A stretch of DNA of 29,327 nucleotides from a virus (taxonomy: Duplodnaviria > Caudoviricetes). Location: positions 1-29,327 of IMG/VR virus record IMGVR_UViG_3300031879_000014, one strand, 5' to 3'. Both the position numbers and the translations under genes were made by a program. Position 1 is the first letter of the stretch. Every line of letters starts with the position of its first letter. This document shows, one piece after another, positions 16,038-25,632 of this stretch. The notes below the pieces were generated by a model that saw only the letters and a program-made list of their open reading frames with translations, did no database searches and was not told the origin of the DNA.

Positions 16038-17255
16038 TTAAACGAGGAATCCACCACCGCGAGTGTATTGCGTTGGAATGCTGTAACTCCCCGAAGCTTT
16101 GATTTGCATGATCGCAGCCCCGCCACGCTGGCGGATTCCGGTTCCAAATGACCTGGCATAGAAACCGTCCACCAACGGATAGCGTTGGTTGTTCCCTGCG
16201 ATAACACGCAAACCCTGCATGGCGGGATTCGAATGCTGCCGCATTCCGACTGGATTTGTCAGGTTGAACAGACCACCGTAGGCGACTCCCAACAGATAGC
16301 CCGCTGGAATGTAGTCGTCTTCGATGAGATGCCAGAAACCGTAGGAGCCGATCACAGGCAAACCGGATAGAATCTCAGCCGGTTGGTTTCCAAGCAAACC
16401 TTCCGCGTTCGGCAGAATCATCGGTGGCTGACTTGGGCTTGGAATGAAGTCGTAGCCCGCTGTCACACCGTTGTTGTTGACGATACCTCTACGGAAGGTA
16501 CGTATCACATCGGATTCGGCCTTGTTACACAGAAGTACGAAACTAGTTCCGTACTGTGGTGCGTAACCGTGTTCGGCAATCAACTGAAGTAGATCTTCGA
16601 CATCGGATGAGTCAATGACCGAGTTCGCAGAAATCACGTAGTGATTGTGTGTGGAAGCGAAGGTATTCGTTTTGAAAGGTGGTGGTGCAACACCATCGGC
16701 ATTGTAGAGCGGATAGACGTTGTACGCCTGATTGCGAATGTTCGCTTTGCGAGTTCTGTTGTCGAACAACGCTTCCATGATCTTACGGAACATGAGTCGC
16801 TTGTCGGCCCACAGAACTGCATTGTGAATCGCTTCGACCTGACGTGCGTCCGCATCGGCAAGGAACATCCATGTGTAGGCGTTTCGCTTGTCGTAGTGAC
16901 GCAGATCGTAGCCCATTTGGAACATTTCGATGGGCAACCCGGCACCGCGCGGCACACCGAGTTCTGATGCCTCTTCGAAAGTCAGTTCACCGATTTGAAC
17001 CACAGGTTCGACCGGAACCGTAACCGGATAGGTAAGAATTCCGATTAGATTGTCCATCACTTCGTTGTAAATAGCGATGGATTCGGCGAACTGATCCCAT
17101 AATGCGTTCAGGTCTACACCGTCAGCAGTTACGGTTACCAGATCGCCTTGAGTGAGCATACCCTCTTGGCGAAGTGGTTGCGTGCCACCAAAGATCGGAC
17201 CAACGGGAATGCCGTCAATCGTCAGCAATCCGTTTTCTTGTGCCAACATTGGCAT
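16038..17255 (-). CDS. Major capsid protein, 405 aa
   Basis: Size, position after scaffold and decoration genes, FEEASELGVP E-loop-like motif, C-terminal GTGIRQRGGAAIM strand; followed by a hairpin. Confidence 0.85.
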   Translation of the reverse strand: MPMLAQENGLLTIDGIPVGPIFGGTQPLRQEGMLTQGDLVTVTADGVDLNALWDQFAESIAIYNEVMDNLIGILTYPVTVPVEPVVQIGELTFEEASELGVPRGAGLPIEMFQMGYDLRHYDKRNAYTWMFLADADARQVEAIHNAVLWADKRLMFRKIMEALFDNRTRKANIRNQAYNVYPLYNADGVAPPPFKTNTFASTHNHYVISANSVIDSSDVEDLLQLIAEHGYAPQYGTSFVLLCNKAESDVIRTFRRGIVNNNGVTAGYDFIPSPSQPPMILPNAEGLLGNQPAEILSGLPVIGSYGFWHLIEDDYIPAGYLLGVAYGGLFNLTNPVGMRQHSNPAMQGLRVIAGNNQRYPLVDGFYARSFGTGIRQRGGAAIMQIKASGSYSIPTQYTRGGGFLV

Positions 17256-17855: not shown

Positions 17856-18614
17856 TTACGAGGTTCTGCCATGTGCGATCACCGGGAATTTCTTCATCAG
17901 ATCGGCCCGCTTGGACTGTTTCTGCTCGTTGCCGGTGGGAGGCGCGGGGGGCTTGCCCGATCCCCGCTGTGGCTGCTGGGTCCGAGTGTCTTTAGCCCCA
18001 CCTGACTTGAGAAGCCAGGGACTCGACGCCGCGATTCTCTTGACCGCCCCCTCCATGCCGGTCACCGTCGCCTCACCACCGTCAAGGTTCACATCGATTT
18101 CAATTTCGTCTTCGTTCAACTCCGACAAGGCTTGCCGAATCGAATTCCACTGGAAATCGGATTGTGAAAGAAAAGCGTTGATCAGAGCCGTGTTGCGAAT
18201 GACTCGATCCATCTTCTGAATGGTTTGGTTCGCCGTGTCCAGATCGGTTTGCAGTTGCTCTTCTCTGGTCTGGGTCTTTCGGGCGTCTTCCTGTTGCTTC
18301 TGGACATAGCCGTCGCGCTCGGTCGTGACTTTGCTGAGATCGCCTTGGAGCTTCTCAACCTGCTTGAGAAGTTGGCTCAAAGCGTTTGGGTCAGCTTGCA
18401 ATTGGGCTACAGGATCAGGTTTCTGCTCTTCCTGCGGAGTTTGCTGCTGATCGACGCTCTGTTGAAGCGACTGTTGCGCAGCCTGACCTTCGGCGGTTAC
18501 CGGAGGCGTTATGTCGGTCGTGGTGGTACCACCGAAGATCGGCCACGCCTTGAGGGCCTGATTGTAAAGCGATCCCAGGGAATTATGGGAATTGTTGGTA
18601 TTCAACGTCGGCAT
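17856..18614 (-). CDS. Capsid scaffolding protein
   Basis: Gln/Glu-rich coiled coil, PWLLK motif then Gly/Pro tail and terminal helix. ATG 18614 (GAGG upstream) preferred over 18680, which overlaps the MuF-like gene. Confidence 0.8.
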   Translation of the reverse strand: MPTLNTNNSHNSLGSLYNQALKAWPIFGGTTTTDITPPVTAEGQAAQQSLQQSVDQQQTPQEEQKPDPVAQLQADPNALSQLLKQVEKLQGDLSKVTTERDGYVQKQQEDARKTQTREEQLQTDLDTANQTIQKMDRVIRNTALINAFLSQSDFQWNSIRQALSELNEDEIEIDVNLDGGEATVTGMEGAVKRIAASSPWLLKSGGAKDTRTQQPQRGSGKPPAPPTGNEQKQSKRADLMKKFPVIAHGRTS

Positions 18615-18660
18615 GATCTTCTTGACCTCTTCCATTGTCCGGTTCTTGATTGTTTCAAAA

Positions 18661-19581
18661 TCAGGCGGCTTTGCTTGCATTTTGATCTATCCAATCCCTA
18701 TACTGTCCTGCTGTCAAGTGCGCCAGGAACACGTCTGGACTTTCGATGTGGGGCGCGACGAAGCAACGGCACTGCGGATGAGGCTTCGGTGGAACGTTAT
18801 CCACATCAAAAATCTGTCCATTTAATTGTGTGCAGACTTCTTTCGGATCGTTGACATGAACCGCTGAAGTGTACCAACGCATCCCTGTAACCCACGGGCG
18901 ATCTTGTGCCATCGTGATGGCCGTGGCGTGGAAAGCATTATTGAGTTCCGTTCGTCCCAAACGAAGCGCGGCGTAACTTGCACCACCCGATACGTTGGGG
19001 TTGATTGATGATTTAACTTGTTTCGCGATATCTTGAGCACTGTCGCCTCGCAAAATAGAACTGTTAATGACCTGATTTACCCATCCACTAGCTAATGCTT
19101 GAGAACGGTAAACTCGTGCCGATAACGGTTGCTGGGATTGCGTAACGCGAGAGATTGCGTGCGCGACCCCTAAAGCCGCACTTTGTCTTTGACTCGTGAT
19201 GAAAGAATTCAAATCAACTGTGGTTAAAGCTTCTGTCAGATATTTCATATCAGTTGCGTTCAAAGCGTCAACGGCTGCGATTGCCTCTTCCCGCTGACCA
19301 CTCCCGATAATCGGGATCAATCTTCGAAATGTAGTTCGCAGAATCGACTTGGCTTCGTTTTGAGCTAATCTGATTTGAGCGGTTCGAACGCCAGAAGACC
19401 ACGTTGTCTTATGACTTAAATCGGTAATGGCTTGTTCGGCATCGTTTGACGCCGCGGTTAAAACGTCTCTGATCAACGCTTCGTTTTTGACTTGCTTCGC
19501 AAGAAATGCTCCCAGCCAACGCCGGTACAACGTTGACGGCGGCTCAATCGCAGCGGCTTGGGCGGGAGTGGGGGCGGTCAT
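18661..19581 (-). CDS. MuF/SPP1 gp7-like minor head protein
   Basis: LRLGRTELNNA...W...CTQLNG...PHPQCRC signature. Start ATG 19581 gives an ATGA overlap with the JAB gene (ORF track start 19680 is probably too long). Confidence 0.85.
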   Translation of the reverse strand: MTAPTPAQAAAIEPPSTLYRRWLGAFLAKQVKNEALIRDVLTAASNDAEQAITDLSHKTTWSSGVRTAQIRLAQNEAKSILRTTFRRLIPIIGSGQREEAIAAVDALNATDMKYLTEALTTVDLNSFITSQRQSAALGVAHAISRVTQSQQPLSARVYRSQALASGWVNQVINSSILRGDSAQDIAKQVKSSINPNVSGGASYAALRLGRTELNNAFHATAITMAQDRPWVTGMRWYTSAVHVNDPKEVCTQLNGQIFDVDNVPPKPHPQCRCFVAPHIESPDVFLAHLTAGQYRDWIDQNASKAA

Positions 19582-20030
19582 ATTAGCGACCACTCTATCA
19601 CTTCGTGCCTGGTGGCGATCCAATAGCGCCATCTCAGAGCAGGATTCGGCCACCCCGCCAGATCGCGAGGGGTCGGCCACGGCACGTTGTTGGGATGCGT
19701 GTGGAAGATTCCGAGAACCTTGTCTTCTCGTTCCTTATAGATAGCACGAAGAGCAGAGTCAAAATCCTCTTGCGACATCAAAAAATTATGTGTCGGTTCA
19801 TGGTGGATATTTTCAACATAGATAACTTCTTGCTCTTCAATGGTGATTAATCCACATCTTTCATTTCGATTCGCCAAACACTGTGAAATCAATTCGTGTT
19901 GTACGCTCTCAAAGAGAAGTATGTCGGGATGCCAAATTCTTTCCGCTTCCCGATCCGTTTTAATCAACTGATTGCAGTTGGAAGGATGGGCAGGATTGTT
20001 AAAATCGGTGTCTTGGAATGGATAAGGCAT
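19578..20030 (-). CDS. JAB/MPN+ (JAMM) Zn-metalloprotease, 150 aa
   Basis: N-terminal catalytic Glu (NERCGLI) plus HTHPNNVPWPTPRD = H-x-H-x7-(S/T)-x2-D JAMM motif. Confidence 0.9.
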   Translation of the reverse strand: MPYPFQDTDFNNPAHPSNCNQLIKTDREAERIWHPDILLFESVQHELISQCLANRNERCGLITIEEQEVIYVENIHHEPTHNFLMSQEDFDSALRAIYKEREDKVLGIFHTHPNNVPWPTPRDLAGWPNPALRWRYWIATRHEVIEWSLI

Positions 20031-20036
20031 CAGATA

Positions 20037-20654
20037 TTATTTCCTAGATGCTCTGCGCCTCTGTCTTCGTGGTTTTGATTGAGCCGTTTTTTGTCCTGCG
20101 ATAGCAGACATTCGTCTATCATATTTTTTGATACCGACCACACTTTTTTGAACAGGAACCTTGTGCTTTCCTCTGCGAACGATAACAGTAGGCCCAACAC
20201 CGCGCGATGTCCCAAGACGGAATTGCGCTCCCTTATAGGGAACTCTTGTTTTGGCGACAGTGCTAACTTCGACATGAGATCGGAAAGCAGAAAGAGCCTT
20301 GCCGCGTCGGGTGCCTTTGGGGAAGACATGTCCGACTGTTTTGTCAACAACTCTATCGAGTTTTGTTTTCTTACTGATGGATTCGATTCGCACATATTGA
20401 CCTGTCACCACCCTTTTACTGCTGCCAGGAATCCTTGTTCCGGCGTTATATCCCACCGTCGCGCTCCGCTTGTTGATCCGCGCATACGGGATAAAATTCG
20501 CTCTAAGTCCTCCAAGCCCTTCTGGACGTGGGGCTTGCGGAACGCGAGCCGAAACCTTGGCAATGCGCCGACCGCGACGAGCCACAGCAGAAGCCAACTG
20601 CGCCTTGCGGAGCGCGGCGACTCTTGCCGGTGTCATCACATGTTGGCGCGTCAC
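20037..20654 (-). CDS. Highly basic protein, leader-family member (MTPARVAALRKAQLASAVARR), 205 aa
   Basis: GTGA overlap with the upstream gene; shared N-terminal motif; Arg/Lys-rich. Confidence 0.85.
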   Translation of the reverse strand: MTRQHVMTPARVAALRKAQLASAVARRGRRIAKVSARVPQAPRPEGLGGLRANFIPYARINKRSATVGYNAGTRIPGSSKRVVTGQYVRIESISKKTKLDRVVDKTVGHVFPKGTRRGKALSAFRSHVEVSTVAKTRVPYKGAQFRLGTSRGVGPTVIVRRGKHKVPVQKSVVGIKKYDRRMSAIAGQKTAQSKPRRQRRRASRK

Positions 20655-21670
20655 TTCAACGTCGTCCCATGCATACGCAAACCTTTACGAATCCGGCGTT
20701 CTTTACGGAATTCCCTGCGCGCCCTCTTGTTCAAATTCAGCTTCGGTTTGACAGTTCCACCCGTGTATTGCGGGCGACCTCGGAAATAACCGAGTGCGGC
20801 TTGACGATGACCGTAAGAAACCTTCTTGCCTTTGGATTCAACTGATTTCGTATAGGCTGCGGTTCGCCGCAATGCTTCAGCTTCGGAAATCGACTTGTTG
20901 TATCCTTTGAGATTTTGGCCTTTAACCTTCCCGCCACCGAAGTGTTTGGGCATAAGACTTCTCGATGGAACAGTTCGCTTCGTTTTTCCTGGCTTACCGA
21001 ACGGACCTGTGTGCAATCGGCCTGGCGTTGGATGCCCGATTGAGGCGTGATACATTCCGGTGTCGCGTGCCGGTAACAGAATCTTCCGCTTGCCTTTCAT
21101 TCTCAACGCAGCGCCGGTATAGGCTTCCGGCGTCTTCGGATAATTGAACCGCGCCATCGTTTTCATTTCGCCTTGAGATGGCTTGTACGGTTTCAATCCG
21201 GCTTGCGGAGTGGTTTTACGGCCCAGAATATGAGACGGCTTGAGCGGCTTGTGAACATACGTGATCGTTGAATGCGAACCGAGCGGACCCTGTTTCTTTC
21301 CCGAATACTGAACCTGATATCCACCACTAGTTCGTCCGAGAACCTTTCCTTTCGGGGTCACATTCATGTGAGTAATACGGCCATGTGTCAACGAACGTGG
21401 ACGGGAGCCGGTGAGATTTCCCGTCAACGGTCCCACAGGGCCGTGCCTGGTTCTGGTCAATGTCGAACCGGAAAGTTTGTGCCGCTGATATCCGGCAGCA
21501 CCGACAAAACCTACCGCCCCAACAACCCCCGCCCCAATCGCAGCACGTTTGATTCGTCTTTTGGTAGTCGGAGTGGGATGAAATTTGCGACGTTTGGCCG
21601 CTGAAATAAGGGAAGCTTTGTGAAGTGCTGCCCTGCGACTTGCTGTGAAAACTCCATATCGCCTCGCCAC
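20651..21670 (-). CDS. Highly basic protein, leader-family member (FTASRRAALHKASLISAAKRR) with Gly/Ala hydrophobic segment, 339 aa
   Basis: GTG start overlapping the upstream TAG; about 8 acidic residues in 339 by my count. Confidence 0.85.
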   Translation of the reverse strand: MARRYGVFTASRRAALHKASLISAAKRRKFHPTPTTKRRIKRAAIGAGVVGAVGFVGAAGYQRHKLSGSTLTRTRHGPVGPLTGNLTGSRPRSLTHGRITHMNVTPKGKVLGRTSGGYQVQYSGKKQGPLGSHSTITYVHKPLKPSHILGRKTTPQAGLKPYKPSQGEMKTMARFNYPKTPEAYTGAALRMKGKRKILLPARDTGMYHASIGHPTPGRLHTGPFGKPGKTKRTVPSRSLMPKHFGGGKVKGQNLKGYNKSISEAEALRRTAAYTKSVESKGKKVSYGHRQAALGYFRGRPQYTGGTVKPKLNLNKRARREFRKERRIRKGLRMHGTTLK

Positions 21671-22146
21671 TATTTCACTCGCCTTATATAATTACGGGAA
21701 TTTGGCCGTTTCCCTTTTAAATTCGGATTTGGATTCTTGATAAGAGTCAAACGATCTTTACGTTGTGTATAGGCAGTGTGATAGAACTTATCTGCGTCGG
21801 AATGAACTTTAATTCCGCTCAACCCTCGTGCGCCGGAATGTGCCGAAGGATGCATAGACATCGATGTCTGTCTGACATGAGCTTGTTTTATTTTGTAAGG
21901 TACATACGTCCGTTGCCCGACAGCGTTAACCGTTGCCCCCAAAACCACTGATCCGACCAGAGCGCCACCGGCAATTCCCAAAGCCCTTCGTCTCATTTGT
22001 CTTTGAGTGGTTGCGTTTTGAACATAACGAGTCGCAGGATTTCTGCTGCGTCTACGTCCACGGCGTTTTGCAGCAGAAGCTAACTGCGCTCTACGTAACG
22101 CTGCACGTCTGGCGGGAGTAAAAGAACCGTAACGTCGGGCCATCAT
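21670..22146 (-). CDS. Highly basic protein, leader-family member with hydrophobic segment, 158 aa
   Basis: MARRYGSFTPARRAALRRAQLASAAKRRGRRR; ATGA overlap; 3 Asp, no Glu. Confidence 0.85.
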   Translation of the reverse strand: MMARRYGSFTPARRAALRRAQLASAAKRRGRRRSRNPATRYVQNATTQRQMRRRALGIAGGALVGSVVLGATVNAVGQRTYVPYKIKQAHVRQTSMSMHPSAHSGARGLSGIKVHSDADKFYHTAYTQRKDRLTLIKNPNPNLKGKRPNSRNYIRRVK

Positions 22147-22769
22147 AGACCCCGTATAGTCTTGCGAACCGATCTTTTCAAACCGCGAGTCTGAATTCTA
22201 GCCGCCCGATCTGTTTTCCATTTTCGTGTCTTATATTTCCTGTAAGATTGTCTTGGTGTTACTTCATCCATCTTCTTAGCCAAGCTGCGTGTCTTTACAC
22301 CAGATATGACACTCGAATGATGATAACCAGCTTTATAAATTCTTCTCTTGGTTCTAGCTTCTACTCCAAATAAAGTCGGGCCACCTTTATCCCATACTTC
22401 ATCTGGTAGTGGTCTACTGATATGACCGCGAACAGTGACTCTCTTTGAAAAATGCCCAGGATCAACGTATAGTTTGCCTCTTCTACCGGCTTGATTAGCT
22501 CTTGCATTAACTTTTCTGGCAGACTTCATCATACGATTCAGTTCGCTGCCAGTTGAATGCGTCTGAGCCGAGAAATACGATCCCGAAGCATAATGCCGTG
22601 CCGCTAAAACGCCGACCGCTGCACCAGTTCCCACCGCGCCATACTTAACGATTTTCCTTTGACGCGGAGTTAATCGTCTACGCCCACGTCTCTTCGCCGC
22701 AGAGGCTAATTGCGCCCTACGTAAAGCCGCTCGCCTCGCGGGAGTGAAACTCCCATAGCGTCGGGCCAT
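22143..22769 (-). CDS. Highly basic protein, leader-family member with hydrophobic segment, 208 aa
   Basis: First 32 aa identical to the neighbouring gene. Confidence 0.85.
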   Translation of the reverse strand: MARRYGSFTPARRAALRRAQLASAAKRRGRRRLTPRQRKIVKYGAVGTGAAVGVLAARHYASGSYFSAQTHSTGSELNRMMKSARKVNARANQAGRRGKLYVDPGHFSKRVTVRGHISRPLPDEVWDKGGPTLFGVEARTKRRIYKAGYHHSSVISGVKTRSLAKKMDEVTPRQSYRKYKTRKWKTDRAARIQTRGLKRSVRKTIRGL

Positions 22770-22775
22770 TTCAAT

Positions 22776-23003
22776 TTAATAGCCAGGCTTCCCTTTGACT
22801 TTCATCGCCGGGGGAGCGCCACCGGGAATCGGACGAGGATTTGTCCAGTTACGTGGATTCTGCGCTTTGATCTCATTCGGAATCGGCTGACCGGGAAGCA
22901 CGGCTTTGCCGCTCTTCACGATAGCGTTTTTCGGCAACCCCGCCACGCGAGCCGAAGCGTGACCCTGAATCATCTTCGGTTTGCCGGAAGTTCCTCTAGC
23001 CAT
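22776..23003 (-). CDS. Small basic Pro/Lys-rich protein, 75 aa
   Basis: Strong SD AGGAG 7 nt upstream; one acidic residue. Confidence 0.8.
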   Translation of the reverse strand: MARGTSGKPKMIQGHASARVAGLPKNAIVKSGKAVLPGQPIPNEIKAQNPRNWTNPRPIPGGAPPAMKVKGKPGY

Positions 23004-23019
23004 TTCAATCTCCTAACTA

Positions 23020-23439
23020 TTAGAGCTTATGCCTTTTCTGAATTCTCATAGCCTGATTTTGATGCATCATCGCTGACTTGGCTAAACGTCTGGAAACCGG
23101 ATGAGTGCTGGGAAGGAATCTAGACGCTTTCCTAGCCGTCTTGGCTTGTTGGTTGTGCTTATACATTCGGTCATAAGCGGTAGCATGAGAGTAAGCGCCG
23201 ACTGCCGCTGCTGCGCCCAAACCTACCGCAGCGTATTTCAAACCCTTTTTTACTTTGCTTCCTTTTTGGAAATCACGAGATTTGACTTGAAAACTGGCTT
23301 TGGCATAGCCTGTCCGTTGACCAATAGAACGTCTCAACGTTTGTGGAACTGTGCCATGCCGTCTGCGTTTCGCAGCGGAAGCCAGTTGCGCTTTCCGTAA
23401 CGCGGCGCGTCTCGCGGGAGTCAAAGTATAAGTAGCCAT
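23020..23439 (-). CDS. Highly basic protein, leader-family member (LTPARRAALRKAQLASAAKRR) with hydrophobic segment, 139 aa
   Basis: TAATG overlap with the upstream gene; shared motif; 2 acidic residues. Confidence 0.85.
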   Translation of the reverse strand: MATYTLTPARRAALRKAQLASAAKRRRHGTVPQTLRRSIGQRTGYAKASFQVKSRDFQKGSKVKKGLKYAAVGLGAAAAVGAYSHATAYDRMYKHNQQAKTARKASRFLPSTHPVSRRLAKSAMMHQNQAMRIQKRHKL

Positions 23440-23690
23440 TATGAGAATCTCTTTCTGGTTCCTTTAGCGGTCGGCCCGTGTTTGTAAATCGGCAGCCGTT
23501 GATACGCTGGCGAATGCCCAAGCGTTTTCGTAATCGCTGAATGCATTCCAGCCCTATGTGCCATCGTATGTGCCCACTTGGCTTTCAGTTTGGGATTCGC
23601 AAAGAAATAACGCATCTGCTTCTTGGACACGAAGCCAAGCGGCATCTTCAAACCGCCCTTGCGTTTCTTGCCTCTGCCACGCTTTCCCAT
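23439..23690 (-). CDS. Small basic protein, 83 aa
   Basis: No Asp/Glu; FVSKKQMRYFFANP..W motif; starts 3 nt after the upstream stop. Confidence 0.8.
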   Translation of the reverse strand: MGKRGRGKKRKGGLKMPLGFVSKKQMRYFFANPKLKAKWAHTMAHRAGMHSAITKTLGHSPAYQRLPIYKHGPTAKGTRKRFS

Positions 23691-23693
23691 GAG

Positions 23694-23813
23694 CTACTTT
23701 TTCCTGGCGACCTTTTTCATCGTTCCTTTGGCGGTCTTAGTCGAAGATTTCTTGCGTCCACCACCTTTCGCAAACGGAGCGGCACGCTTGCCTTTGAAAT
23801 TCTTGAGCGCCAC
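23694..23813 (-). CDS. Small Lys-rich protein, 39 aa (MALKNFKGKRAAPFAKGGGRKKSSTKTAKGTMKKVARKK); below the ORF-track cutoff
   Basis: GTG preceded by AAGGAGA; alternative in-frame ATG at 23840 overlaps the previous stop; no acidic residues. Confidence 0.75.
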   Translation of the reverse strand: MALKNFKGKRAAPFAKGGGRKKSSTKTAKGTMKKVARKK

Positions 23814-23836
23814 AACAATATCTCCTTGCGAATTGA

Positions 23837-23950
23837 TCATCTGATTTTTAGACCTGGCGTGATGCGCTTGATTTTGAATCCACCTTTGGTGGGAATGATT
23901 CGTGTTGACGCGACGATCTTGTTGAATGACCTCGTGCTGAACTTAGCCAT
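23837..23950 (-). CDS. Small basic protein, 37 aa (MAKFSTRSFNKIVASTRIIPTKGGFKIKRITPGLKIR); below the ORF-track cutoff
   Basis: Fills the gap after the portal; same composition as its neighbours; weak SD. Confidence 0.6.
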   Translation of the reverse strand: MAKFSTRSFNKIVASTRIIPTKGGFKIKRITPGLKIR

Positions 23951-23970: not shown

Positions 23971-25632
23971 TCAGCCCAAAGGAACCGTCTGTTTGCCGAA
24001 TCCGCCTGGCGTGTTGCCGTTTGCTCCCGGCGCGGGAACGTTGCCCTGCGGCGGGGCGACACCGGCAGCCTGGTCGAACGCAGACAGGTTCGATCCGCCC
24101 GCAGCACCAGCGGCGAACGGGTCCATCGCCGTCGCGGCAGAGGACGCCTGATCGGTCAGCAGGGCCACGATGTCATCGTCGGTCAGTGCGTTGCCCTGAT
24201 CGTCAGTCGTCGGATACTTCCAGCCCAGTTCCCTCAACTTCGCAATCGCCATCTTCGTCAGAATCAGATTAGACGTTTGCAACAAAAGCGTTTCTTGAAT
24301 CTCAGCGTTTCTGTCCACCGGCATCGGATCATCGAAAACACAGACAACCGACATCTGACTCATGGTTTCGATACTGCCGAAAGTTTCGCTTTCGTAAGCC
24401 GGAAGCCACATCGTCGTGATATCGTGGAACATCTGATCCAGAATCGTAACGTATTCCAATTCCTTCTCAGCGTTCGCTGCGATCAACGGCATCAGTTCCA
24501 TTTTCATTGCGATACCGGATTGAACTGCCGTCACATCGACGCGACCGATAGCAAGCGCGGGCACTCCTGCCGCTTCAGACAATCCCTTATCGCTGATATA
24601 ATCCATGTGATTCTGATATGGACTCATATCAGTCACACCGCTTACACGTTGAAAAGTTTGATCCTGCCCAACTTCAATGATTTGCATTGGGCCGATATTC
24701 CAATCAGTGACTTGCCCGGTATTCGGATCAACTGGTGGCGCAGCCGTTGTCATATACATGCCCAAGCCCTGAAAGACAATCGTTGCGTCTTCATCTGTCA
24801 GGGATTGGTTGATGCCGTACATCAACGTTTCAAGACCGGCCAACTGACTGATGCCCCACGATGAATTCTGCGGCGGCATGTTGCGCCACTTGTATATCGG
24901 CAACTGAGTGATCGACGGCGGAAGCGGGGTTTCCGGTTCGACCGGCCCACCGGAAACCGATTCCATTTCGGATGAATCTAAAACGCGATCATCCCATTTA
25001 CCGATTTCCCAAAACGTCACTTCCTGCGTGATCGTTCCTGTCGGCTGCCCAGTGTCATCTAATTCCTTACGGAAAGTAGTTCGTTTGCAAACCTGCTTGT
25101 TTGGGTCACGCCAATCTTTGACTCGCTCAGCAACGTGATAGCCGATTGTATTCTGCTCTTCGTCCTCAATCGTAAAAACTTGGCGTGGATCGACTTCAGC
25201 AATGCATACGCGATTACCGGCTTCTTTATTAGGGTTAGCGTACAACATAAACGCGGAATCACCGCGAACCAATCCCCAACGCTTATTCGATTCGAATAGA
25301 GTCTTGAACGCTTCACGCTTAAAGAAAGCTTTCCACCAGTCGTCTAAAGCTTGCTGAGTCCCGGCGTCACCTTCGCCCTCAACCAAGTAATCAACATTGA
25401 TGCCAAGAAATCGATTCGTCGCTTCGATCAATTTACGACCTGACGGCATCAGCAACGGATGCGACTCATCGCCCCTGATGGTGATCTTCAGTTGCCACGT
25501 TGAGTTGATATACAGATTCTCGTACAAGTCATAACACTGGACGCGCAACTTATCGTGCAATTCAACAACGTTATCATCGCCGGTCTGAATAAAATCCCTG
25601 GCGGCGTCATATTGCTTCGGGTTGTAGACCAT
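23971..25632 (-). CDS. Portal protein, 553 aa
   Basis: Directly after terminase; WGLVRGD, WGISQL, AQSG-like (VQSGIAM) and VVCVFDDPMPVD motifs of SPP1 gp6-like portals; SD GAGG. Confidence 0.9.
   Translation of the reverse strand: MVYNPKQYDAARDFIQTGDDNVVELHDKLRVQCYDLYENLYINSTWQLKITIRGDESHPLLMPSGRKLIEATNRFLGINVDYLVEGEGDAGTQQALDDWWKAFFKREAFKTLFESNKRWGLVRGDSAFMLYANPNKEAGNRVCIAEVDPRQVFTIEDEEQNTIGYHVAERVKDWRDPNKQVCKRTTFRKELDDTGQPTGTITQEVTFWEIGKWDDRVLDSSEMESVSGGPVEPETPLPPSITQLPIYKWRNMPPQNSSWGISQLAGLETLMYGINQSLTDEDATIVFQGLGMYMTTAAPPVDPNTGQVTDWNIGPMQIIEVGQDQTFQRVSGVTDMSPYQNHMDYISDKGLSEAAGVPALAIGRVDVTAVQSGIAMKMELMPLIAANAEKELEYVTILDQMFHDITTMWLPAYESETFGSIETMSQMSVVCVFDDPMPVDRNAEIQETLLLQTSNLILTKMAIAKLRELGWKYPTTDDQGNALTDDDIVALLTDQASSAATAMDPFAAGAAGGSNLSAFDQAAGVAPPQGNVPAPGANGNTPGGFGKQTVPLG

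Follow-up and report, generated by a model that had tools for sequence, protein, structure and literature searches.

Genes A and B of the window (the whole 29,327-nucleotide stretch of viral DNA analysed here) begin with the same 32-residue peptide, and they belong to a family of leaders that head otherwise unrelated, very basic proteins. The family leader is a helix of about 20 residues with the pattern T-x-x-R-x-A-A-L-R-K-A-Q-x-x-S-A-x-K-R. By analogy, it is best read as acting like the capsid-targeting sequence (CTS) of phage T4, yet uncleaved. That the leader is an uncleaved head-loading tag which binds the prohead is a proposal whose chances we put at about even.

Gene content of the window

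Judged from its sequence, the window covers the structural genes of a mycobacteriophage of the Patience type (cluster U). The major capsid protein has 79% identity to those of the cluster U phages Labelle and Madruga. Nine ORFs lie in the interval between the portal gene and the Prok-JAB/MuF genes. Each of them is basic (summed net charge +279), and five carry the leader. The features are as follows:

23971..25632, minus strand: portal protein, upstream border of the array
23439..23950, minus strand: three small basic genes without leader, of 37, 48 and 83 aa; the largest belongs to phrog_1375, as does Patience gp10
23020..23439, minus strand: leader gene 23439, 139 aa, net charge +30
22776..23003, minus strand: gene 23003, 75 aa, basic, without leader, within the array
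22143..22769, minus strand: gene A, 208 aa, net charge +45, with a Gly/Ala-rich hydrophobic stretch behind the leader
22674..22769, minus strand: gene A leader, residues 1-32; the core helix starts at Thr9
21670..22143, minus strand: gene B, a leader gene, 157 aa, net charge +33
22048..22143, minus strand: gene B leader, residues 1-32; same peptide as in A with 19 silent codon changes
20651..21670, minus strand: leader gene 21670, 339 aa, net charge +67, leader diverged
20037..20654, minus strand: leader gene 20654, 205 aa, net charge +46, orthologue of Patience gp18 (49% identity)
19578..20030, minus strand: Prok-JAB metalloprotease, likely the head maturation protease, downstream border of the array; Patience gp19 is labelled protease
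18661..19680, minus strand: MuF-like head protein
17856..18680, minus strand: scaffolding protein with a PIFGG-T processing site
16038..17255, minus strand: major capsid protein with a PIFGG-T site, candidate partner of the leader

Patience has the same gene block as the window (gp111 and gp10-gp18), and the N-terminus of its gp14 is a nearly identical leader. Patience homologues of the bodies of A and B were not found, and tblastn with gene A, run with the low-complexity filter on, returned no phage homologue. Leader and gene position together suggest that the products of A and B are located in the virion. The 83-aa basic gene (23439-23690) contains an F-x-S-x-x-Q motif and is found near the portal gene in most of the related phages examined; in PBI1 the phrog_1375 gene is the sole gene of the portal-JAB interval.

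Genes A and B start with the same peptide in different codons

Genes A (start 22769) and B (start 22143), both on the minus strand, were compared codon by codon. Residues 1-32 are the same. Of the 32 codons, 19 are different, as are 21 of the 96 nucleotides, without a single residue change; the silent differences include AGT/TCT at Ser7 and AGA/CGC at Arg27. Residues 33-40 differ at every position. The initial annotation, which described one peptide in silently diverged codons and an abrupt end of similarity after residue 32, was thus accurate on both points. At full silent saturation, 22.9 +/- 2.4 codon differences would be expected with the codon usage of this genome. The NG86 method gave a pS of 0.67 and a dS of about 1.7 for the pair; its three non-silent steps are a product of the Ser and Arg codon paths. 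Within the window, the five copies of the leader were detected with E values from 4.7e-15 to 4.7e-12. Among 7,626 pairs drawn from 124 family leaders of 23 genomes or contigs, the 32 residues of A and B are the longest identical run; one of three identical within-genome cores was dropped from this comparison as the same gene on two contigs. The A/B pair is the extreme case of a pattern that is seen family-wide.

The leader heads unrelated basic proteins in the head module

Carriers were collected by DNA patterns combined with a profile search, which gave 211 in the first tally. The motif is N-terminal in 209 of them and C-terminal in 2. Their bodies fall into 119 families and are basic in all 205 measurable cases. 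A Pfam scan of 99 carrier proteins gave no family above its cut-off. Leader arrays comprise as many as 12 genes per genome and are situated between the portal and the JAB-protease/MuF genes of Patience-like phages. For the analysis of leader conservation, chance matches in metagenome loci (CHAT-like or out-of-frame, for example in L064, L073, L090 and L061) were removed by filters on start, position and charge.

In whole-genome searches, 10 of 18 records had matches. Patience (7), Predator (3), Barnyard (3) and G004 (12) had all of theirs within the head module, and further matches were obtained for Send513 (4) and PBI1 (1). Sadboi, Suzy, Cuke, Anakin and G001 gave none. Since the related Cuke and Anakin are without a match, such a tag is dispensable for this capsid family.

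The basic ORFs of the portal-JAB block were also analyzed. Of those with at least 90 aa, 47 of 49 in 13 blocks begin with one of a few motifs. The 10 genomes among these that were picked without the motif contribute 30 of 32. All motif patterns were written post hoc. The two ORFs that lack a motif are a gene of Suzy and a frame of DrLupo that is not annotated. Outside the portal-JAB interval, PBI1 encodes a 546-aa basic protein with a leader variant at its start (L015:2136-3776), directly followed by an ADP-ribosyltransferase gene (L015:3773-4543). In related Gordonia phages and G001, the same slot is occupied by basic proteins with RDxxG[RK][FW] or WGNALGG motifs (L017:6593-9799, L018:4729-5468, L009:4964-7186).

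Selection on one face of the leader helix

Carrier sets that are chosen by motif inflate conservation. Therefore, two less circular sets were used, namely 94 leaders that fail the DNA search pattern (profile-selected nonetheless) and 31 homologues picked on the 20654 body alone. In the 94 leaders, T2 (95%), R/Q5 (100%), A8 (89%), L9 (84%), A12 (97%), Q13 (76%), S16 (89%), A17 (91%) and R20 (93%) are kept, and positions 3, 4, 10, 14 and 15 are variable. Conservation has its strongest period at 100 degrees per residue (p 0.0097), corresponding to one helix face, and two models predict a helix from the capping Thr on. The initial annotation had argued that generic positive charge would not suffice, and that this would be wrong if homologous leaders varied freely as long as they stayed basic. 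The argument held, since the non-basic positions T2, A8, L9, A12, Q13, S16 and A17 stay at 76-97% and the conservation is helically periodic at p of about 0.01.

Residue identity of leaders was 72% within genomes and 69% between them (0 of 500 shuffles), with the two close relatives of the window left out of this test. Four-fold sites are near random, at 0.32 within and 0.29 between genomes. Position 18 is lineage-specific, with Ala or Val in all five window leaders and Arg or Lys in most other genomes. The orthologous leaders of genes A and 23439 have a dN near 0 at a dS of 0.5-0.6, and the dN of the bodies is 0.14-0.36. The leaders of genes 21670 and 20654 are not better conserved than their bodies, so that the proposed dN/dS comparison bears out a constraint on the leader beyond that on the body for the first two genes and not for the other two. 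RNA structure in the five window leaders was unremarkable (z from -0.17 to -1.65), and no common fold was detected.

One orthologue has a leader that reads MVRRYGSLT, and homologues show variation at roughly half of the core positions. Selection, as read from these alignments, targets one helix face and not the full 32 residues. The initial annotation had proposed that the peptide itself is specifically recognised. Selection on the peptide, more specific than charge, stands; a requirement for the whole 32-mer does not. The purifying selection seen in the sequences is real, and the complete identity over 32 residues partly reflects lineage history.

The leader is probably retained

The maturation site of the clade, PIFGG-T, is present near the N-terminus of both the capsid (16038-17255) and the scaffold (17856-18680). 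JAB-family proteases are suited to cleavage after Gly-Gly, and cleavage at PIFGG-T would suit the adjacent JAB-family protease. The site fits the published processing points of Patience, in which scaffold peptides begin at residue 35, after Gly, and the capsid is modelled from Thr20. An earlier placement of the capsid cleavage at residue 82/83 (PMC4324244, 2014) does not fit this later model. The sequence P[IFV][FY]GG occurs within the first 90 residues in none of 195 carriers. In Text S1 of PMC4324244, gp23 and gp21 are the only proteins listed as processed, and two peptides of gp17 map upstream of the helix start. As no site lies near the leader and these gp17 peptides were observed, the carriers probably keep the leader uncut.

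Leader carriers in Patience particles

Portals are present in 12 copies per particle. All seven Patience carriers were detected in particles purified on CsCl (PMC4324244, Table S1). Spectral counts, which are a poor measure of copy number (the portal scores 0.22 of the capsid per residue), were 694 for gp15, 257 for gp14, 233 for gp18, 153 for gp13, 124 for gp17, 33 for gp12 and 30 for gp11, compared to 572 for the capsid, 3 for the scaffold and 0 for the protease (PMC4324244). gp15 is named as likely one of the three strongest gel bands. The leader-carrying proteins are listed there as virion proteins of unknown function, and the parts of that text considered here do not mention a common leader or charge. 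In infected-cell extracts, the ratio of 150-min to 30-min spectra was 0.35-1.15 for the seven carriers and 1.3-17 for seven other particle proteins.

Two capsid maps bear on the location of the carriers. In the 2020 map, gp15 was guessed to be a capsid accessory (shell) protein, without a fit (PMC7150772, in part). In the 2.4 A map, the ordered shell is accounted for by three proteins, capsid, minor capsid and gp4, the in-hexamer density being given to gp4, and the sections considered do not mention gp15 or gp14 (PMC11965321). The same map contains a small unmodelled helix on the capsid underside near the local three-fold axes. The CsCl purification, the absence from the ordered shell and the unmodelled inner helix suggest that the carriers are inside the head. 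The leader is thus a candidate for unassigned cryo-EM density in the Patience capsid, and the proposal offers a testable role and location for the most abundant unexplained proteins (gp11-gp18) of a cultured and structurally studied phage.

Proposed mechanism and alternatives

Tailed phages pump their DNA into a preformed prohead. In the proposed mechanism, the Thr-capped basic helix of about 20 residues would dock each carrier on the inside of the prohead ahead of DNA pumping, the conserved helix face binding the inner capsid surface or the scaffold. The polycationic bodies would then attach to the packaged DNA, offset part of its charge and perhaps exit together with it, and some bodies would contribute ADP-ribosyltransferase-like domains. 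The leader DNA would serve as a crossover point through which the array gains, loses and shuffles cargo genes. Since the bodies are already basic, DNA charge is not reason enough for a specific helix. A tag would explain why the leader is N-terminal, why a single face is conserved and why leaders are swapped, and it would also account for the virion data and the inner helix.

A more far-reaching version is tentative. Here, the portable uncleaved tag would itself be the unmodelled inner-face helix, and heads would be lined with hundreds of polycationic proteins that offset the DNA charge and enter the cell, sometimes with ADP-ribosyltransferase cargo, the leader DNA being the hinge of an accordion-like cargo array. 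If true, this would be the first capsid-loading tag from a mycobacteriophage, and it could be used to pack proteins of choice into laboratory mycobacteriophages. Against a tag, the unmodelled helix in the Patience map could belong to a different protein.

It is possible, though we hold it to be somewhat improbable, that the leader itself is a DNA-binding helix, with small residues and Gln in the groove and flanking Arg/Lys on the phosphates. It would act in a protamine-like manner, and retention in the head would be via DNA and not via a protein partner. The conserved Ala/Ser/Gln/Leu face with Arg/Lys at its flanks agrees with this, and so does the probable retention of the leader. Q13, SA at +3/+4 and R/K at +8 presumably resemble bZIP basic regions. 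A related type-2 helix occurs in tandem (5 to about 8 copies) in phages without a Patience-type capsid protein, which suits DNA binding and speaks against a tag. It makes up nearly the whole protein in L047 (5775-6371; about eight copies, three by strict pattern and the others by eye) and is present in five copies in L052 (5928-6599). None of the four records with the tandem helix, one of them complete, matched the Patience-type capsid profile. Unrelated leaders interchange, and two of them coexist in Predator, Barnyard and DrLupo; this is again in line with DNA binding. The coexistence also counts against the tag, as do the missing matches in Cuke and Anakin. However, the type-1 leader occurs once per protein, at the N-terminus in 209 of 211, and the bodies have enough basic charge of their own for DNA binding. 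DNA-bound proteins would also need to pass through the portal or through pores of the shell. The leader matches neither NUMOD3 nor any Pfam, NCBIfam or solved DNA-binding family. NUMOD3 (PF07460) was rejected as a candidate, with 0 of 44 leaders matching in Pfam and a search of Patience, Predator, Send513 and Sadboi that yielded nothing at E up to 1. The bZIP basic region (N-x7-[RK] plus leucine zipper) was likewise rejected, as it gave no Pfam or PDB match and the leader has Gln where bZIP has Asn.

We consider it unlikely that the leader acts jointly with the Gly/Ala hydrophobic stretch as a unit that is membrane-active, in the manner of a signal peptide or a cell-penetrating peptide, or self-assembling, for ejection through the mycobacterial envelope or for core condensation. 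Such a stretch, defined as a 17-residue window with a Kyte-Doolittle mean of at least 1.2 that lies at most 35 residues past the leader, is present in 75 of 111 body families, compared to 3.8 expected from shuffles. The low 150-min/30-min ratios of the carriers are compatible with early delivery, but low late counts may also reflect loss with the DNA in the pellet. The stretch is absent from 36 of the 111 families and its hydrophobicity is marginal for a membrane span. The Tat motif [ST]RRx[FL][LIM] was found in 0 of 195 carriers. Set against the layout of Tat and Sec signal peptides, a basic n-region and then a hydrophobic h-region, the stretch in the 75 families is moderately hydrophobic, and signs of cleavage were not seen. 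Moreover, this explanation accounts for the second segment and not for the conserved helix face.

Mimicry of the C-terminal scaffold helix by the leader was also considered and rejected. The scaffold helix has R-x-x-L in common with the leader, and a post-hoc scan of 6,118 windows placed it at rank 4, but the profile comparison gave a probability of 1.5% over 7 columns. The scaffold helix itself, R-x-x-L-x-x-K-[FY]-P (17859-17957 in the window), is kept across the clade, its likeness to the leader being faint and not significant.

Leader DNA as a crossover point

In the close relatives L084 and L093, the gene that follows the 23003 orthologue begins with 48 nt that equal the start of the A leader in L060/L114 (0 of 48 differences). 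Its body is that of a B-slot gene. The copy of this gene in L097 differs at 20 of the 48 leader nt but at only 16 of 351 body nt. L084 and L093 both lack gene A; the recombinant is present on two separately assembled contigs, and mis-assembly is possible. Gene content varies among the window, L093, L097 and L114. The initial annotation had argued against any function of the leader as a DNA-level repeat. As worded, this is not supported, as the exact 48 nt of a paralogue's leader indicate that the leader DNA is not inert; as read from these contigs, it is also a crossover point between paralogues.

The B leader differs from the A leaders of relatives at just 15 of 96 nt, and orthologous A leaders differ among themselves at 10-11 of 96. 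The A/B distance of 21 nt is only twice the latter value, and shared descent and exchange therefore contribute to the perfect match. Of the earlier view that purifying selection and not recent duplication accounts for the pair, the selection is upheld, with these contributions added. Nevertheless, the identity is most improbably in the main a by-product of DNA exchange between paralogues under loose selection for a basic translation start: the recombinant, the closeness of the B leader to relatives' A leaders and the ordinary conservation of the 21670 and 20654 leaders fit it, but the 21 nt changes with zero residue changes in A/B speak against it, and a pure by-product is largely refuted by silent sites near random where residues are about 70% identical over 23 genomes, and by the dN near 0 of the orthologous A and 23439 leaders against that of their bodies.

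Exchange extends to other leaders. Among the 31 homologues of the 20654 body, 7 have this leader, 21 have the [YF]NPxQxR[DG]xxG[RK]W type, 3 have MAWSxxARAAAL and none is without a motif. Thus three mutually unrelated leaders replace one another on a single body. A hybrid leader at L065:730 (minus strand) joins type-2 to type-1 in a register that places N-L-x-K-A-R over A-L-R-K-A-Q.

Comparison with known systems

In the parts of PMC9958956 considered here, T4 is described as loading internal proteins at prohead assembly, and the CTS of IPII/IPIII is a short peptide common to the N-termini of head proteins that lie outside the shell lattice and number in the hundreds. The ADP-ribosyltransferase Alt is packed by T4 as well (PMC9958956). 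As for the CTS, a common N-terminal peptide was found on unrelated head-module proteins (209 of 211 carriers, 119 body families), and the published spectra place 7 of 7 carriers in mature virions, in this case of Patience and not of the window phage. Unlike the CTS, and compared with it by description, the leader has about 20 residues, is helical and is strongly basic. Up to 12 genes stand in one tandem array, and at least three leaders are interchangeable. Cleavage behind the peptide, a feature of the CTS, was not found, as the protease site of the clade follows the leader in 0 of 195 carriers. This points to a loading of internal proteins without cleavage, unlike the T4 model.

Like the microvirus J and VP8 proteins, the carriers would be Arg/Lys-rich proteins inside the capsid that combine a short segment for capsid binding with a part that binds DNA. 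The microvirus protein differs in being one small protein of a ssDNA T=1 virus with a C-terminal aromatic anchor and, in the portion of PMC11281519 considered, no modular tag on many cargoes. MuF polymorphic toxins, as treated in part of PMC3482391, likewise comprise variable enzyme domains that are encoded in the head module and predicted to be in the phage head. There, the cargo is fused to MuF, whereas the leader array consists of separate genes beside muF with a 20-residue tag.

Searches of Pfam, NCBIfam, PDB sequences and the ESM Atlas gave no named family for the leader, only a weak uL16 match (E 0.08). The PHROGs matches of leader proteins are unnamed families of those same proteins. 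In the literature outside subscription papers, a description of the leader was not found.

Cargo bodies

PHROGs and RefSeq give the protein family of Patience gp18 the label 'head maturation protease', yet the family is very basic and particle-associated in Patience, which suggests that the label is wrong. A protease role for the 20654 body was rejected, as its model (pTM 0.30) consists of long hairpins and had no fold match at E 0.001. Two tandem type-2 helices precede an acidic domain whose Cys and His motifs are, by eye, reminiscent of a papain-like peptidase (L044:2860-3456, L046:4460-5068, L053:5884-6513); Pfam gave no papain-like support for this domain.

Some cargo of related phages looks like ADP-ribosyltransferase (ART). 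An ART-like motif (H-x-x-T strand and a second strand with aromatic and Ser/Thr residues) was found in 12 of 274 carriers, and one carrier matched Tox-ART-HYD1 with E 0.0013, below the cut-off. All 42 matches listed in a fold search with ART-like cargo are ART-fold entries (best E 0.028, not significant), as are all 3 matches of a sequence search (E 0.05-0.9, not significant). Two of the 12 are extra leader genes with ART-like bodies in the close relative L093 (L093:2768-3196 and L093:3819-4394), which are absent from the window.
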